Shown here in pieces: positions 20,816 to 62,401 of a DNA stretch of 62,843 bases (the first letter of the stretch is position 1; the number at the start of each line of letters is the position of its first letter). The notes beneath the pieces were generated by a model, which was not told the origin of the DNA, did no database searches, and worked only from the letters and a program-made list of their open reading frames with translations. The position numbers and the translations under genes were made by a program. The stretch is from a virus. Taxonomy: Duplodnaviria > Heunggongvirae > Uroviricota > Caudoviricetes. The stretch spans positions 64,001 to 126,843 of the IMG/VR virus record IMGVR_UViG_3300021963_000042, one strand, 5' to 3'.

Positions 20816-21430
20816 ATGGCTAACACAACCCCACCTAAAAACCCTTCTTCGCTCAAAGACGTGTTCGAGAAGAACAAGTATTCTCTCGCCGATGCGGCAA
20901 AAAGATCACGCTCTTGGTTCGATCAACAAGCTCTGCTATTAACGAAGCAGGGAATAACACCACCTAAGGTTATGAAGGGTGACGCTTCAGCACTAAAGAG
21001 TACTGTGAGTCCAGGTAAACTCTACATGTACTATTATGACCCTAAGTTAAAGGCTGAGTTACCATATTATGACAAATTCCCTTTGGTGTTTCCATTCAGA
21101 AAACTTGAGGGTGGGTTTCTCGGTTTAAACATGCACTATTTACCGTATGTATTGAGAATTCGCTTGCTGGACAAACTTATGAACTTTGCCAGCAACAAAA
21201 AGATGAACGAAAACACCAGACTCAGATATTCGTGGGCGCTAATTGATGGGGTTTCCAGATATAACGCTGCTATCCCTTGCGTCAAACACTATTTGCTAGA
21301 TCACGTAAAAACTCCCTTCAGAGAAATCCCATCATATGACTGGGCTACAGCAATGTTGCTTCCCGTAGAAAGATTTTCTGGCGCAACTAAAGAAGTTGTT
21401 TGGGCTGAATCAAGAAGAAAAATGGGCTAA
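20816..21430 (+). CDS. gp2: DNA end protector protein gp2
   Basis: GKLYMYYYDPKLK..LPYYDKFPLVFP...GFLGLNMHYLP...CVKHYL; preceded by CTAAATA at 20804-10. Confidence 0.88.
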   Translation: MANTTPPKNPSSLKDVFEKNKYSLADAAKRSRSWFDQQALLLTKQGITPPKVMKGDASALKSTVSPGKLYMYYYDPKLKAELPYYDKFPLVFPFRKLEGGFLGLNMHYLPYVLRIRLLDKLMNFASNKKMNENTRLRYSWALIDGVSRYNAAIPCVKHYLLDHVKTPFREIPSYDWATAMLLPVERFSGATKEVVWAESRRKMG

Positions 21431-21431
21431 T

Positions 21432-21977
21432 ATGGCATCAATATCAAATTTCATTTCAACTGTTAAAAGCGAAGGTCTTGCAAGAACTTCCAGATATACA
21501 GTAAACATAACACAACCAGCATCATTCTCTTATGGAAGTTTAGACCTGAGAGTCGTTACAATGTATTGTTCTGATGTGACTCTTCCAGGAATGACGCTGA
21601 CGACAGCTCAGCTAAGAACTTTCGGTGAATTGAGAGAAACACCATACGATAGAGTTTACGATAATGTCAACATGACGTTTTATGTAGACACTCATATGAC
21701 AGTAAAAGAATATTTTGATAAGTGGATAAATTCCATTCAAGATATTAAAACACGAACTTTCGCTTATTATGAGAAATATACTACACCGATTATTATTGAT
21801 GTTGAAGATATCAATGACATGACAAGATATAGAGTTAAGTTACATGAGTGTTATCCTAAAAATATAGGATCTATTCAGCTGGCGCACGATCAAAAAGATG
21901 TAATGAAACTTCAAGTTTCTATGAATTATAAGTGGTGGGAATTCGAAAGAACAGAAGAAACAGAAGAAGAACAATAA
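21432..21977 (+). CDS. gp54: Baseplate tail-tube initiator gp54 (tail-tube fold)
   Basis: GLARTSRYTV, C.DVTLPG, MTFYVD...YFDKW, L.ECYPKNIGSIQL. Confidence 0.75.
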   Translation: MASISNFISTVKSEGLARTSRYTVNITQPASFSYGSLDLRVVTMYCSDVTLPGMTLTTAQLRTFGELRETPYDRVYDNVNMTFYVDTHMTVKEYFDKWINSIQDIKTRTFAYYEKYTTPIIIDVEDINDMTRYRVKLHECYPKNIGSIQLAHDQKDVMKLQVSMNYKWWEFERTEETEEEQ

Positions 21978-21988
21978 GGAGAAGTAAG

Positions 21989-22426
21989 ATGGCAGAAGAA
22001 GAAGTAAAAGTAGAACCGAAAAAAGACGAAGACTGGATGCAGAAGAAGTGGCGTCCAGCTATGGGCTGGATGTACATGGTTGTTTGTTTCTGTGACATGG
22101 TTCTATTCCCAGTAGCTTGGAGTATTCTACAAGCTGTACTGAAGCAACCAGTAACACAATGGAATCCATTAACTTTACAGGGTGCTGGATTATTCCACCT
22201 TGCAATGGGTGCTGTTCTGGGTATCGCTGCATGGGGTCGCACTCAAGAGAAAGTTGCTGGCGCTGCAAGTAACGCTCCAGTACCAGGAACACCACCTGCT
22301 CCAATGGCACCTACCACGACAGCAATAAATACAACACCAGCACCAGTTCCTCCACGTCCATTACCAACAAGAATGGACAACGATACTGCTGGTGACCCAC
22401 CAACACGAAACACTCGAAACGATTAA
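21989..22426 (+). CDS. Putative holin (GTA 3-TM holin-like)
   Basis: WMQKKWRPAMGWMYMVVC..DMVLFP...GAGLFHLAMGAVLGIAAWGRTQEK; hydrophobic segments plus Pro-rich tail. Confidence 0.6.
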   Translation: MAEEEVKVEPKKDEDWMQKKWRPAMGWMYMVVCFCDMVLFPVAWSILQAVLKQPVTQWNPLTLQGAGLFHLAMGAVLGIAAWGRTQEKVAGAASNAPVPGTPPAPMAPTTTAINTTPAPVPPRPLPTRMDNDTAGDPPTRNTRND

Positions 22427-22427
22427 G

Positions 22428-22847
22428 ATGAAAATTGATGATAGATTATCAGAAGTCTTTGATGTTCCTACTATAACTAAGACCGAAGGTGAAGTGATAG
22501 ATGCGTCTACTGGCGAGATTATTCAAAAACCAGTAGAAAAAATCGAAGATGATTATGACAGAACACGAAATAACTTACACGAGTTACTTGTGAAAGGGCA
22601 GGAAGCTCTGAATCATGCACTAGAAGTTGCAAAACAATCAGAGCATCCTCGTGCGTTTGAGGTAGTTGGAAATTTGATGAAGCAGTTAGCTGACGTGAAT
22701 CAGCAATTGATGGACATTCATCAACAGAAAGCCAAACTTGATGGTCCAGGAAAAGCGGACAAGCAAGTTACAAATAATAACGCTATCTTTGTTGGTAGCA
22801 CAGCTGAGTTGAATAAACTTATTAAAAATATGACTAAAGGAGATTGA
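22428..22847 (+). CDS. gp16: Terminase small subunit gp16-like
   Basis: DYDRTRNNL..L..KG.EAL..AL.VA..SEHPRAFEV...L; NNAIFVGSTAEL. Confidence 0.65.
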   Translation: MKIDDRLSEVFDVPTITKTEGEVIDASTGEIIQKPVEKIEDDYDRTRNNLHELLVKGQEALNHALEVAKQSEHPRAFEVVGNLMKQLADVNQQLMDIHQQKAKLDGPGKADKQVTNNNAIFVGSTAELNKLIKNMTKGD

Positions 22848-22848
22848 T

Positions 22849-23568
22849 GTGGCTTTACCTGTGAATACATCACCAGTATATTCGATGGTTATTCCATCTA
22901 CTGGACAAGAAGTGAAATTTAGACCATTCCTAGTGAAAGACGAGAAAGCTCTGTTGATTGCTCAACAAAGCGAAGACCCAGAAGTAATGGCAGAGACATT
23001 AAAAAATGTTATCAGTTCTTGCATCACGACGCAAATTGATGTTGACAAATTAGCAACATTCGATTTGGAATACATCTTTACGCAAATGCGTGCAAAGTCT
23101 GTAGGTGAAAATGTGGATCTGATGTTCCCATGCGATATCTGCCCAACGGACGATGAGAAAGCTCGTGTTAAAATTAGTTTTGATCTAACTAAAATCAAAG
23201 TCGAGAAAGACGCAGATCATACGAATAAAATTCATCTATTCAATGACGTTGGTGTGGTGATGAAGTACCCAACTATCCAATCAATGAATAGATTTAAAGA
23301 ACTTAACGCTGACAATCTAGACGACTTATTCAAACTTATCGCAGAGTGTGTTGATTACATTTATGATGGCGATGAGATTCACTATGCAAAAGAACAAGCA
23401 TTCAATGACGTTCTTGAGTTTATGAACAACCTGACTTCTGATCAATTCAAGAGTGTTCAAAAATTCTTTGAGACTATGCCGAAATTAAAACAAAATGTGC
23501 AGTACACTTGCCCAGTTTGTCAACATCAACACAATAAAACTCTGGAGGGACTCCAAAGTTTTTTTTAG
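22849..23568 (+). CDS. gp26: Baseplate hub assembly protein gp26
   Basis: LP....P.Y...IPSTGQEVKFRPFLVKDEKALLIA, LATFDLEYIF..MRAKSVGE, FFETMPKL...CPVC..LEGLQSFF. Confidence 0.88.
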   Translation: MALPVNTSPVYSMVIPSTGQEVKFRPFLVKDEKALLIAQQSEDPEVMAETLKNVISSCITTQIDVDKLATFDLEYIFTQMRAKSVGENVDLMFPCDICPTDDEKARVKISFDLTKIKVEKDADHTNKIHLFNDVGVVMKYPTIQSMNRFKELNADNLDDLFKLIAECVDYIYDGDEIHYAKEQAFNDVLEFMNNLTSDQFKSVQKFFETMPKLKQNVQYTCPVCQHQHNKTLEGLQSFF

Positions 23569-23762
23569 TAAACCTTTGTCACGATAGCTTGTTCAATCAT
23601 TATAAAACAAACTTTGCAATGATGCAATATCACAAATACTCTCTCGCAGAACTAGACAATATGATACCATTTGAGAGAGAAGTTTATATTGCCATGTTAG
23701 TGAAGTATCTTGAAGAGGAAAGACAAAGGTTAGAATCATCAAAATCAAGAGGTAGAATGTAA
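23562..23762 (+). CDS. gp51: gp51-like baseplate hub assembly chaperone (missing from ORF track; first ATG 23619, frame open from the gp26 slippery site)
   Basis: Hand translation: FLVNLCHDSLFNHYKTNFAMMQYHKYSLAELDNMIPFEREVYIAMLVKYLEEERQRLES; stop 23760-62 abuts next ATG. Confidence 0.8.
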   Translation, partial: FLVNLCHDSLFNHYKTNFAMMQYHKYSLAELDNMIPFEREVYIAMLVKYLEEERQRLESSKSRGRM

Positions 23763-23763
23763 G

Positions 23764-25854
23764 ATGGCACGACAAGACTATATCGTTCACGTTAGCTCTA
23801 GCGAAATGAAGAAGCTGCTGGAAGTGCAGCAACAGGCGCTGGGTTCTCTAGAATCTATGAGAACGACTCTAGAGAAAGCACAAGAACACGCTGTTGTTAA
23901 TGCTGAACGAATAGAACAGTTTGATAATAGATCTACCAAATTACAAGAAGAGTCTAACGATTTAACTAAGGATCTGTTAAAAACTTCTGAGAAAAGTTTA
24001 GAACAGCGAGGAAGAGAACTAGAAGCTATTACGCAGATGAGTGAATCTGTAAAGACCTTCGACAGCTTCGCCGATAAATTCGATAATTTCACAGACAAAC
24101 TTAAAACGAATTTAGACCCGTCTAACCTTAAAGAGACGATGCTAAAGAAATTTAACTTTGGTGGCGTATTCGACAAGAAGATTGAAGAAGGTAAGTTCAT
24201 CAAGCAGCAAAAAGCATTGGGTAGTGAAAAATCAGATAAAGAACTAAAAGCTGATTTTGAAGAAAGAAATACAGCTGCCAAAGCTATCAAGAAGAATGAA
24301 GCTAAGATTAGCAGCCTTAAAGAATCAACTGGGCTGTCAGAAGAACAACTGAAGAATGCTCCACCAGAATCTGCTGCTGGAAAACTATTTGCTGAAAGAG
24401 CGCAGTTGGCTCAGAAGGTTGAGAAGACTGATATTAGAAGTTCATATGTAACTAACAATACAGAAAAGTCTAATACTGAGAAAGTCAAAGAATCTGAAGT
24501 AATAACAAAGACAACAACACCAGCTGAACCTGTTAAGATTGCTGAAGTTATTAAACCTATTCCAGTTACATTCGCCACACCAGATACTGCTGACCAAAAC
24601 AAACAGCTAAACGTATCTGAAGATGAGATGGAAGCTGCTCGCATGCAGGAAGACCATCTTGATGTTCTTAAGGCGATTGAAAAGAACACACGAACTGGTG
24701 TAACTCCAGGCGCACCAGCCCCAGCTACTTCTAGTAGTGGTGGTGGTTTAATGGGTGGTATTGGATCTGGTCTCAAATCACTTGGTGGTGGTTTGGCTGG
24801 ACTAGGTAAAGGTATCGGTAAAGGTGTTGAAGGATTATTGAAGGGTATCGCTGAAGGTATTAAATCTTTCGGTAACAGTGATGTACTTAAAGGTGCAGCA
24901 ACGATGACAATCCTTGCAACTGCTTTATGGATTACTGGAAAGGCAGTACAAGAGTTCGTTGAAGTTGAGTGGGAAGATATGGCAAAGGCTGGCGTAGCAT
25001 TACTTGGTCTTGCTGGTGTAGCAAAGTTAATGTCTGCAGGTTCAACTGAAATGATAAAGGGAGCAGCTGCTATTGCTGTTCTTGGTGGTGCTCTTTGGGT
25101 TGCTGGTAAAGGATTTGAAGTTTTCGGTGAGATGGATTGGTCAGCTATCGGTAAAGGTTTTGTGGCATTACTAGGACTTGGTGCGGTAGCTGCTGTTCTT
25201 GGTTTAGCTTTACCATTCATTATCCCTGGAGCTATCGCAATCGCTGCATTGGGTGCTGCTCTGATTCCATTTGGTATAGCGTTTAATCTGGCAGGTCCAG
25301 CTATGGAGTCATTCGCTAAAGCCATGACATCATTGTCCGAGCTAGATGGATCTAATTTATTGAAAGTCGGTCCAGCCCTATTAGCTATTGCTGCTGGTAT
25401 GACTGCAATGGGTGCTGCTCAGGCAGCAGCTGGTGTAGGAAACCTTGTTGGTAAATTCTTGTCTTTCGTTTCTGGTCAGAAAACACCAGTTGAACAGATT
25501 ATCGAATTAGGTAAGAATGGTAATAATATTGCTGCAGCTGGAAGTGGTGTTGAGGGTATCGGTAAAGGTTTGATGCAGTTGTCTCAAGTAGACGCTGATA
25601 AAATCAAAGCTATTGCTGCATTACCAACTGAAAAGATCGCAGCGATGGGAGCAGCAATGAGAAGCGCTGGTCCAGTGTACGATCAATCTGGAAAGAATGC
25701 TGGCGCTGCAATCCCAGTACAAGGTGGTGCGCAAGTCATCGCTCCAGTTCAAAACAACGTGTCTGTAAATCAGAATCAAAATCAGATTATCAAATCACCT
25801 GTTCGAAACCAAGACGGAACTGTCGGCGACTATCTAAAAAGTCGTTACGCATAA
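23764..25854 (+). CDS. Tape-measure / baseplate hub gp29-like protein
   Basis: 696 aa; N-terminal coiled coils, Gly/Ala-rich hydrophobic repeats; follows gp26/gp51. Confidence 0.6.
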   Translation: MARQDYIVHVSSSEMKKLLEVQQQALGSLESMRTTLEKAQEHAVVNAERIEQFDNRSTKLQEESNDLTKDLLKTSEKSLEQRGRELEAITQMSESVKTFDSFADKFDNFTDKLKTNLDPSNLKETMLKKFNFGGVFDKKIEEGKFIKQQKALGSEKSDKELKADFEERNTAAKAIKKNEAKISSLKESTGLSEEQLKNAPPESAAGKLFAERAQLAQKVEKTDIRSSYVTNNTEKSNTEKVKESEVITKTTTPAEPVKIAEVIKPIPVTFATPDTADQNKQLNVSEDEMEAARMQEDHLDVLKAIEKNTRTGVTPGAPAPATSSSGGGLMGGIGSGLKSLGGGLAGLGKGIGKGVEGLLKGIAEGIKSFGNSDVLKGAATMTILATALWITGKAVQEFVEVEWEDMAKAGVALLGLAGVAKLMSAGSTEMIKGAAAIAVLGGALWVAGKGFEVFGEMDWSAIGKGFVALLGLGAVAAVLGLALPFIIPGAIAIAALGAALIPFGIAFNLAGPAMESFAKAMTSLSELDGSNLLKVGPALLAIAAGMTAMGAAQAAAGVGNLVGKFLSFVSGQKTPVEQIIELGKNGNNIAAAGSGVEGIGKGLMQLSQVDADKIKAIAALPTEKIAAMGAAMRSAGPVYDQSGKNAGAAIPVQGGAQVIAPVQNNVSVNQNQNQIIKSPVRNQDGTVGDYLKSRYA

Positions 25855-32545: not shown

Positions 32546-32659
32546 AAAAATTCCTTTAAATTAAAAGTTAAACAGTCGCATATTAATGTCGTCACTTTAG
32601 TCAGTACAAGAGCCACAGGGCATCGGTTGCTAACATCGAGCAAAGACTTCACTAATTCG

Positions 32660-32977
32660 TGGTAGGTTATTCTGTTACGAGGAAACCTACCGAAACCCTA
32701 AGCAGCGTTTAGGCTGCTAATGCGTAGACAGAGTCGTTTGCATTTACTTTGTTTGCTTCTTCGACCGAGTTACCCCAATCCTAAAGGCTTTCGCATTGCC
32801 TAGTTGTCCACTTCTGTACTTGTTGCCCTGTCGAAACCTAGTCACCCCCATCAGAAACATACTATTCTTGATTTAATCAAGTGCCTTCGTTAGGGTCTGC
32901 AATAGTATGCTTTTGGTGGAGGTGGGGAGAATCGAACTCCCGTCCAGAACACTTTTCTAGTTGCTTCATACAACCAT
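32660..32977 (-). ncRNA. ssrA: Circularly permuted (two-piece) tmRNA, tag ANDSVYALAA*
   Basis: Minus strand order: acceptor piece with T-arm GGGAG-TTCGATT-CTCCC and CACCTCC-A-CCA (ends 32914); 64-nt intervening hairpin; GGGGGTG-ACTAGGTTTCGAC (starts 32849); tag 32741-32709. The acceptor stem contains G3:U70. The 3' end of the coding piece is approximate. Confidence 0.9.
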
Positions 32978-32983
32978 AAACTT

Positions 32984-33012
32984 ATTATACGCTAACAGTA
33001 TTTATATGTCAA
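32984..33012 (-). promoter_or_regulatory. Composite promoter for tmRNA: perfect TTGACA-17-TATAAT with T4 late TATAAATA in the spacer
   Basis: -35 at 33007-12, -10 at 32984-89, TATAAATA at 32999-33006. Confidence 0.8.
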
Positions 33013-61131: not shown

Positions 61132-61207
61132 TGGTGCCCCAAGAGAGACTCGAACTCCCGACCTTCGCATTACTAATGCGCTGCTCTACCAACTGAGCTA
61201 TTAGGGC
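61132..61207 (-). tRNA. tRNA-Thr(AGT)
   Basis: 76-nt cloverleaf; G1-C72, C2-G71; loop TT-AGT-AA; CCA encoded. Confidence 0.85.
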
Positions 61208-61209
61208 AT

Positions 61210-61719
61210 TTAATATTCACTTATTTTAACGTCTTTCAATGCTGCTACAGTTTCATCGTAAGATGCTTCTTTAACACAAAGACTTAAAATTATTCTTTCC
61301 TGATTAGACATGTTCATAACACAATGCTCATGTTTAACATTAAGAATAGTGGGTTTGTATAGTATATATTTCACTTCATCAAGTGTATAGTACAAAGATT
61401 TGTTTTCAACATCATCATAAAGTTTGGATCTATAAAAAGCACGTCCACCTGTATCATTGATTGGAAAATTTATAGAGCACTGTCTGACGTTTTTGTCAAT
61501 GTGCCAGTCATACAATGAGTTTGGTGGATTCTTAATCCATAACGCACTTACGTCGCCGATTAAATTCTTCAGCGACCTAATAAAATTAGAATTGTTAAAC
61601 ATAGTTCCCGCACGATAATCGTTTGGTGATACGTTTAATTTATAGGTAGCATTCATCCCTTCTTTGATGTATCGTGAAGATAGATCAGGAAAATGCTCTA
61701 AGCAATAATAATTTTTCAT
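61210..61719 (-). CDS. Putative 2OG-Fe(II) oxygenase / cupin-like protein
   Basis: YDWHID...SINFP...PTILNV...H.V.N.S...R.ILS; start trimmed to 61719 because the longer ORF overlaps tRNA-Ala. Confidence 0.65.
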   Translation of the reverse strand: MKNYYCLEHFPDLSSRYIKEGMNATYKLNVSPNDYRAGTMFNNSNFIRSLKNLIGDVSALWIKNPPNSLYDWHIDKNVRQCSINFPINDTGGRAFYRSKLYDDVENKSLYYTLDEVKYILYKPTILNVKHEHCVMNMSNQERIILSLCVKEASYDETVAALKDVKISEY

Positions 61720-61727
61720 TTTATCCT

Positions 61728-61802
61728 TGGTGGACCGTAAGAGAATCGAACTCTTACCTCTGACGTGCAAAGCCAGCGTGCTCCCATTATCACTAACAGC
61801 CC
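61728..61802 (-). tRNA. tRNA-Ala(TGC)
   Basis: G3:U70, loop TT-TGC-AC, CCA. Confidence 0.92.
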
Positions 61803-61807
61803 AAGTA

Positions 61808-61882
61808 TGGCTCCACAGGCAGGGATCGAACCTACGACCAATTGATTAACAGTCAACTGCACTACCGCTGTGCTACTGTGGA
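61808..61882 (-). tRNA. tRNA-Asn(GTT)
   Basis: Loop CT-GTT-AA, G73, CCA. Confidence 0.92.
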
Positions 61883-61906
61883 ATATAACTATCTATTCTA
61901 AAATTT

Positions 61907-61980
61907 TGGTGCCCCATGACAGAATCGAACTGCCATCCTCGGATTACAAAACCGATGTTCTACCATTTAACTAATGGGGC
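61907..61980 (-). tRNA. tRNA-Thr(TGT)
   Basis: Loop TT-TGT-AA, CCA. Confidence 0.9.
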
Positions 61981-61984
61981 GAAT

Positions 61985-62061
<77 letters not shown>

Positions 62062-62068
62062 ATAAAAC

Positions 62069-62143
62069 TGGTGGTGATGGTTGGATTCGAGCCAACGACC
62101 TGCTCCGTATGAAGGAGATGCACTACCGCTGTGCTACATCACC
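62069..62143 (-). tRNA. tRNA with CAT anticodon (Met or Ile2)
   Basis: Loop TT-CAT-AC; T loop CTCGAAT (C at position 54); CCA. Confidence 0.82.
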
Positions 62144-62242
62144 ATAAAGGGTTATACTGGCAGGTGCGGTATCTGGTCTCGACTTTAGGATGTCTCAACT
62201 TGCCCATGCTCCTTTTTCTTTCCTTACCAATACAACTTTTTA

Positions 62243-62317
62243 TGGTACCTTGTGACGGGATCGAACCGCCGACCTTCTCCTTGTAAGGGAGACACTCTAC
62301 CGCTGAGTTAACAAGGC
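62243..62317 (-). tRNA. tRNA-Val(TAC)
   Basis: Loop CT-TAC-AA, A73, CCA. Confidence 0.9.
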
Positions 62318-62324
62318 AAATAAC

Positions 62325-62401
62325 TGGTGCCCACGCAGAGACTCGAACTCTGAAAATTTGGCTTCTAAGACCAACACGTATACCAATTCCGTCACATGGG
62401 C
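62325..62401 (-). tRNA. tRNA-Leu(TAG), short variable region
   Basis: Leu-type D arm (A15), A73, loop CT-TAG-AA, 5-nt variable loop. Confidence 0.85.

Follow-up and report, generated by a model that had tools for sequence, protein, structure and literature searches.

Organisation of the gp26 locus

The DNA analysed here (the window) is a stretch of 62,843 nucleotides from an uncultured T4-like phage of the Caudoviricetes, spanning positions 64,001 to 126,843 of the IMG/VR record IMGVR_UViG_3300021963_000042, and the locus considered is the gp26-like gene, the short open frame that overlaps its end, and the gene that follows (Table 1). The gp26 product matches the family profiles PF12322 (T4_baseplate; E 2.1e-64, profile positions 2-218 of 219) and phrog_150 (E 4.6e-70) and is the single PF12322 protein encoded in the 126.8-kb virus record, which is estimated to be 72% complete. 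The overlapping frame, shifted by -1 relative to gp26, encodes a short product that matches phrog_634, ‘baseplate hub assembly catalyst’ (E 1.4e-25), and also positions 233-279 of the 282-position gp26 family profile phrog_150. As this profile spans both the gp26 part and the module, some members of the family hold the two in one chain. The module of this type is recognised by the motif NF..MQ.HKYSL…M.PFER.

The gp26/extension pair lies immediately upstream of a tape-measure-like gene. The sequence-only reading had described this gene as looking like a tape measure, and the identification stands in a modest form: the match to the ‘tail length tape measure protein’ profile phrog_4372 is itself modest, and the gene in the same position in Caulobacter phage Cr30 is annotated as a tape measure, whereas BLASTP of the 696-aa protein against T4 gp29 gave no significant similarity.

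On the other side of gp26 is a terminase small-subunit gene (22392-22847, plus strand; phrog_445 E 9e-38, PF11053), whose TGA ends at 22847, the gp26 GTG starting 2 nt on, at 22849. It is itself preceded by a tail-tube-like gene (21396-21977, plus strand), one of three phrog_45 paralogues, the others being L093:1411-2004 (minus strand) and L094:1447-2001 (minus strand). The first of these two adjoins the sheath gene and is likely to be of the gp19 type; of the remaining pair, one is found beside the major head protein gene and the one in the window upstream of the terminase small subunit and gp26. A 164-aa open reading frame (21932-22426, plus strand) overlaps the ends of the tube-like and terminase genes, its true start probably lying further in; its product has a basic N-terminus, hydrophobic segments and a Pro/Thr-rich tail, and carries no family assignment. 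By annotation, the gene directly upstream of gp26 encodes a tail tube protein in phages S-SRM01 and phiN3 and a hypothetical protein in S-CAM9 and S-PRM1.

Table 1. Features of the gp26 locus, with positions numbered from the first letter of the window.
Feature	Position	Strand	Description
gp26-like gene, short form (TAC-N)	22849..23568	+	239 aa; GTG start after AAAGGAG; stop TAG
Small hairpin TGGAG-GGA-CTCCA	23543..23555	+	5 bp; 3 nt before the T run; with the run, resembles an intrinsic terminator
GGAGG, Shine-Dalgarno-like, candidate frameshift stimulator	23544..23548	+	10 nt upstream of the heptamer
Slippery heptamer T TTT TTT	23559..23565	+	gp26 frame, codons AGT TTT TTT; putative -1 slip site
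gp51-like C-terminal module (TAC-C)	23565..23762	+	-1 frame, 65 codons + stop
Short-form stop TAG	23566..23568	+	directly 3' of the heptamer
Tape-measure-like gene, presumed chaperone client	23764..25854	+	696 aa; phrog_4372 ‘tail length tape measure protein’ E 2e-12

A slippery heptamer at the end of gp26

The 3' region of gp26 reads CTG GAG GGA CTC CAA AGT TTT TTT TAG TAA ACC, with a run of exactly eight T residues at 23559-23566, and an X XXY YYZ heptamer is thereby placed in the zero frame where the two frames overlap. From 23538 onwards the -1 frame stays open, across the heptamer, as far as a TAA at 23760-23762. The codon that follows a -1 slip is TTA at 23565, after which the frame reads LVNLCHDSLFNHYKTNFAMMQYHKYSL, and such a slip adds 65 residues to give a fusion of 304 aa, with the predicted junction ...GLQSFF-LVNLCHDSL... 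and the junction peptide GLQSFFLVNLCHD. The gene end with its in-frame heptamer had been described in the sequence-only reading, and its coordinates match base for base; so does its account of a -1 slip entering a gp51 frame that stays open to 23762.

This arrangement, together with the comparative evidence set out below, makes it likely that a programmed -1 ribosomal frameshift yields a 304-aa long chaperone form (TAC-NC) beside the short gp26. A minority of ribosomes would slip back one base on U UUU UUU (23559-23565), by tandem slippage of tRNA-Phe, bypass the TAG, and read the -1 frame to 23762, so that the last 65 residues of the long form would be the ‘gp51’ module. If lambda G/GT and T4 gp26/gp51 are a guide, the short and the long form would both help the tape-measure protein to be assembled into the baseplate hub and tail tube. 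We infer the ribosomal nature of the shift, its efficiency and the chaperone function itself, and found no experimental report of a trans-frame protein in this phage or its relatives in the literature.

Conservation of the junction

We compared 80 IMG/VR loci containing gp26 relatives (41-88% identity), which present 61 distinct junction sequences. At all 80 loci gp26 ends in xxT TTT TTT or xxT TTT TTC and the module lies in the -1 frame, open across the heptamer; in all of them, as in more distant isolates, the gp26 stop comes at once or one to two codons after the heptamer. It follows directly in 44 of the 61 junctions and one codon later in the other 17, and three different stop codons are in use. 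The pattern extends well beyond these loci. The T4-like cyanophages S-CAM9, S-PRM1 and S-SRM01 read AGT TTT TTC GCT stop, and heptamer and frame are kept in Sinorhizobium phage phiN3, Caulobacter phage Cr30, Vibrio phage VH7D, Stenotrophomonas phage Yut2, Desulfovibrio phage 7757 and Aeromonas phage AS-szw. A comparison of gp26 3' ends across T4-like phages, proposed earlier (as an alignment) as a check on the frameshift, finds the heptamer and a -1-frame gp51 conserved, at 80 of 80 loci and in distant lineages. In Klebsiella phage May (Ackermannviridae, L088) the -1 frame likewise encodes a gp51-like module, but the gene end reads GAG ATT TTC ATT TAA, with no canonical heptamer, which suggests a single-tRNA slip or some other route in the Ackermannviridae.

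Eight-base homopolymers are common error sites, and the interrupted frame might in principle be a sequencing or assembly error in a continuous gene, or a decaying pseudogene. However, 80 metagenome assemblies of independent origin, with runs of 6, 7 or 8, have the same frame relation, as do many sequenced isolates, and both frames show purifying selection. The comparative data effectively refute this explanation.

A point against frameshifting is that the Phe-Phe dipeptide is itself conserved, and part of the conservation of the heptamer could be protein constraint. The in-phase conservation of the heptamer nevertheless exceeds what the protein sequence calls for. All 61 of 61 junctions have TTT as their first Phe codon, as against 64% TTT for Phe elsewhere in the genes, although the junction sequences are related and counts such as this are not of independent events. 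The codon before Phe-Phe is AGT, AAT, TCT or GGT, specifying Ser, Asn or Gly, and always ends in T (60% T elsewhere), i.e. the wobble T is kept across four codons. The run itself varies in length, with T8 in 40 junctions, T7 in 3 and T6 in 18, while its phase is fixed. That the pattern has been kept through several independent changes is, even so, shown by the amino-acid replacements at the codon before Phe-Phe and by the use of three stop codons. In 10 of the 61 junctions a -1-frame stop abuts the heptamer, with the 0-frame stop within 0-3 nt, so there the two frames can be joined only on the T run; and -1-frame stops are never found between heptamer and module.

Coding signature of the -1 extension

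The first in-frame ATG of the extension is at 23619, and the sole start-type codon before it is a TTG at 23589. The observation that gp51-like residues precede this ATG, with no other ATG in front of them, was made in the sequence-only reading and is confirmed. Amino-acid conservation of the -1 module in fact begins at the heptamer. Over -1 codons 2-14 the pairwise differences at codon positions 1, 2 and 3 number 3331, 2534 and 5272, and the conserved residues use several synonymous codons, Leu9 for example being encoded by TTG, TTA, CTT, CTA and CTG. Residues N11 and F17 are invariant, and L4, H6, L9, Y13 and N16 nearly so, all of them preceding any start codon that is conserved. By such customary comparative measures, the segment from the heptamer to the first ATG is translated. 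Among relatives, the first codon of start type may be any from codon 1 to codon 20 of the extension, and the only nearly universal Met is that in column 20, within the conserved motif. As this codon varies in position and conserved residues lie before it, an independent start would remove conserved residues.

These data bear on a second explanation, that gp51 is a separate small protein made from TTG 23589 or ATG 23619, perhaps by re-initiation, the T run representing Phe-Phe codons only. Database annotations do name the open reading frame as a separate ‘baseplate hub assembly catalyst’, and in cyanophages and several distant lineages an ATG is found at or just after the gp26 stop (TGATG, TAATG, TGAGTATG), in the first two of these forms overlapping it; this is a classic coupling arrangement, and one that also requires the -1 frame. 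In the distant TGATG/TAATG lineages the module may, besides frameshifting, also undergo independent, coupled translation. In the window this is unlikely. Here, and in the clade to which the window belongs, no start codon precedes the conserved L4, H6, L9, N11 and Y13, and neither TTG 23589 nor ATG 23619 has a Shine-Dalgarno sequence before it, whereas gp26 has AAAGGAG and the next gene GAGGT. The invariable T at the end of the codon before Phe-Phe, across four codons, and the placing of -1-frame stops, which abut the heptamer and never separate it from the module, likewise speak against a separate gp51, as does the covalent joining of the module to a gp26-like body in T4 (see below). We regard a separate small protein as improbable here, and the ‘gp51’ mini-ORF of this phage is most likely the C-terminal part of a fusion and no separate gene.

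The T4 proteins offer a natural comparison. Residues 1-201 of T4 gp51 (249 aa) belong to PF12322 (E 4e-52), and its tail, residues 207-249, aligns with the -1 product of the window (BLASTP E 4e-6). Profile comparison by hhalign of A1 and A2 (A2 being the 65-aa module) with the single T4 gp51 sequence was weak, with a probability of about 31%, and the homology to T4 gp51 is carried by the family HMM matches, not by hhalign. T4 gp51 consists of a gp26-like domain plus the module, which indicates that the module works covalently attached to a gp26-like body. Genes 26 and 51 of T4 are separate and divergent, and T4 thus encodes the short form (gp26) and the long form (gp51) as two paralogous genes, in a hard-wired manner, with no frameshift, where the present phage has one gene and a -1 extension.

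Ribosomal versus transcriptional slippage

The main rival to ribosomal frameshifting is slippage of the RNA polymerase, which would add one U on the T8 run (U9), normal translation then running from gp26 into the module. It would give the same short and long proteins, and it could act together with ribosomal slippage. Runs of about nine A or T serve transcriptional slippage in Thermus dnaX and Shigella mxiE, and T8 is present in 40 of the 61 distinct junctions; in the window, moreover, the small hairpin followed by the T run resembles a site of intrinsic termination or pausing. Inclusion of the AAAA upstream of it (23536-23539) can lengthen this hairpin to an 11-pair stem, which would sequester the first slippery U residues. 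However, the hairpin is not conserved: 18 of the 61 junctions fold to about 0 kcal/mol there, and we therefore rejected hairpin and T run as a conserved element for termination or slippage. Hairpin-driven slippage of the known kind also deletes a base, and would lead into the +1 frame, which is open for only about 19 nt. Run length is a further difficulty. A run of only T6, with a C after it, is present in 18 of the 61 junctions and in all of the cyanophages and distant isolates that were examined; phase and frame relation are the same there, yet T6 is as a rule too short for appreciable polymerase slippage. The common denominator is an in-phase X XXY YYZ, not the length of the run, which points to tandem tRNA-Phe slippage on the ribosome. 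Transcriptional slippage is for these reasons an unlikely source of the long form.

Ribosomal frameshifting at this site may be aided by the upstream GGAGG. GGAGG or GAGG is found exactly 10 nt upstream of the heptamer in 48 of the 61 junctions, and some purine-rich, Shine-Dalgarno-like motif 8-10 nt upstream in 60 of them. The Glu codon at this position is mostly GAG (29% GAG elsewhere in the gene), although the motif overlaps conserved Glu-Gly codons and may be partly a coding by-product. The E. coli dnaX frameshift site reportedly has a Shine-Dalgarno-like stimulator at the same spacing, 10 nt upstream of its own homopolymeric heptamer (Larsen et al. 1994). The stop codon directly after the heptamer is a second candidate, as slow termination could favour a slip in the P site. 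On the 3' side the search for a stimulator was negative: folding of 23530-23660 gave a z of -1.8, and in 25 diverse relatives the 60 nt that follow the heptamer yielded weak, non-homologous folds with no conserved hairpin or pseudoknot. In this respect the site differs from dnaX, which has a strong downstream hairpin. It differs also in outcome, as the dnaX frameshift truncates the product and the shift here would extend it.

In the clade of the window the heptamer has lengthened to a U8 run, which abuts the stop codon and is preceded by the small hairpin and GGAGG. On this basis one might imagine recoding at two levels, combining a P-site slip stimulated by the stop and Shine-Dalgarno-like element, with no downstream structure, and polymerase insertion of a U at the terminator-like pause. 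We think this unlikely; if true, it would be a kind of recoding site not described for tail chaperone genes.

A T4 late promoter in the overlap was considered and rejected, as TATAAATA is found in the window only at 32999 and 55891, with none near the site, and sigma-70-like matches were at chance level. ARAGORN identified a permuted tmRNA with the tag ANDSVYALAA and a tRNA cluster in the window, at 32618-33006 and 61132-62401, both on the minus strand. The cluster comprises eight genes (Thr x2, Ala, Asn, Pro, Met, Val and Leu). The cluster has no gene for tRNA-Phe, so that the host would supply the slipping tRNA.

Proposed chaperone character of gp26

We modelled gp26 with AlphaFold on the basis of a 25-sequence alignment (pLDDT 86, pTM 0.80) and searched the model against all PDB cluster representatives. 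With VIA-align the N-terminal residues 1-90 gave as top row 3fgx_B (Z 7.8), followed by the HK97 tail assembly chaperone 2ob9_B (Z 7.3, rmsd 4.5 Å over 84 aligned residues) and B. subtilis YqbN (3klu_A, Z 7.0), which we take to be an XkdN-type prophage tail chaperone; unrelated structures reached Z values of 4.2 at most. Foldseek matched the model to 2ob9_B with a probability of 0.77 over 59 columns. In the model, then, the N-terminal 90 residues of gp26 resemble the tail assembly chaperone fold, the matches being coherent, although Z values below 8 are no proof. A sequence search of solved structures with the gp26 profile gave nothing relevant, and no similarity to G/GT-type chaperones.

PF12322 possibly contains an internal duplication, as residues 1-94 and about 121-233 of the gp26 model (m048147bf5eed) form similar halves, each a helix plus hairpin. 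In the same sense, hhalign pairs the second Cys-pair region of gp26 (199-233) with the first Cys-pair region of T4 gp51 (63-97).

Comparison with known tail assembly chaperones

In chaperones of the lambda G/GT type the tape measure is the partner of the short form, and the tail tube protein that of the C-terminal part of the long form. A -1 frameshift in tail assembly chaperone genes is reported to be conserved among long-tailed phages (Xu, Hendrix and Duda 2004), and is reported also for the E/E+E' genes of P2. With the G/GT class the gp26 N-terminal 90 residues share, in the model, an HK97 chaperone-like fold. There is, however, no sequence similarity between gp26 and chaperones of the G/GT type; gp26 is larger (239 aa) and has two Cys pairs, the extension is of only 65 residues, and the heptamer is U UUU UUU/C here where that of lambda is G GGA AAG. 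A complex prediction of the 65-aa module with the gp19-type tail tube protein (L093:1411-2004) scored 0.00, which is evidence neither way. The proposal of a programmed -1 frameshift producing a G/GT-type pair, put forward in the sequence-only reading, is thus supported by the conservation of the in-phase heptamer, the coding signature of the -1 frame, the fusion in T4 gp51 and the chaperone-like N-terminal fold.

The likeness to T4-like gp26/gp51 is closer, the families being the same (PF12322, phrog_150 and phrog_634) and the logic of short and long forms likewise. To our knowledge, it is only through genetic work on T4 that the function in baseplate hub assembly is known; reviews of T4 describe gp26 and gp51 as hub assembly chaperones (PMC3004832). 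To judge from a later paper that cites them (PMC12846349), Vladimirov, Gautam and Davidson 2022 (Virology 566:9-15, doi 10.1016/j.virol.2021.11.003) identify gp26/gp51 as the tail assembly chaperones of T4-like phages, and the citing paper also refers to their study for -1 frameshift signals of the poly-T kind in TAC-N genes of these phages; the PRFect paper (PMC10274946), citing Vladimirov et al., mentions T4-like phages in which a short gene and a fused long one take the place of frameshifting. It had been supposed in the sequence-only reading that a frameshift of the G/GT type was undescribed for T4-type gp26/gp51. The two citing papers point instead to a description in 2022 and, by their account, the present site is one more, unannotated, member of a published T4-like gp26/gp51 recoding class that has been in print since that year.

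Implications

No new principle emerges from this site. Its practical bearing is on annotation: in this phage, as in hundreds of genomes of T4-like cyanophages, rhizobiophages, vibriophages and uncultured aquatic phages, the mini-ORF named ‘baseplate hub assembly catalyst’ most likely encodes the C-terminal part of a frameshifted protein and does not constitute a separate gene. The site also speaks for the T4 lineage conforming to the rule of short and long tail assembly chaperones in long-tailed phages.
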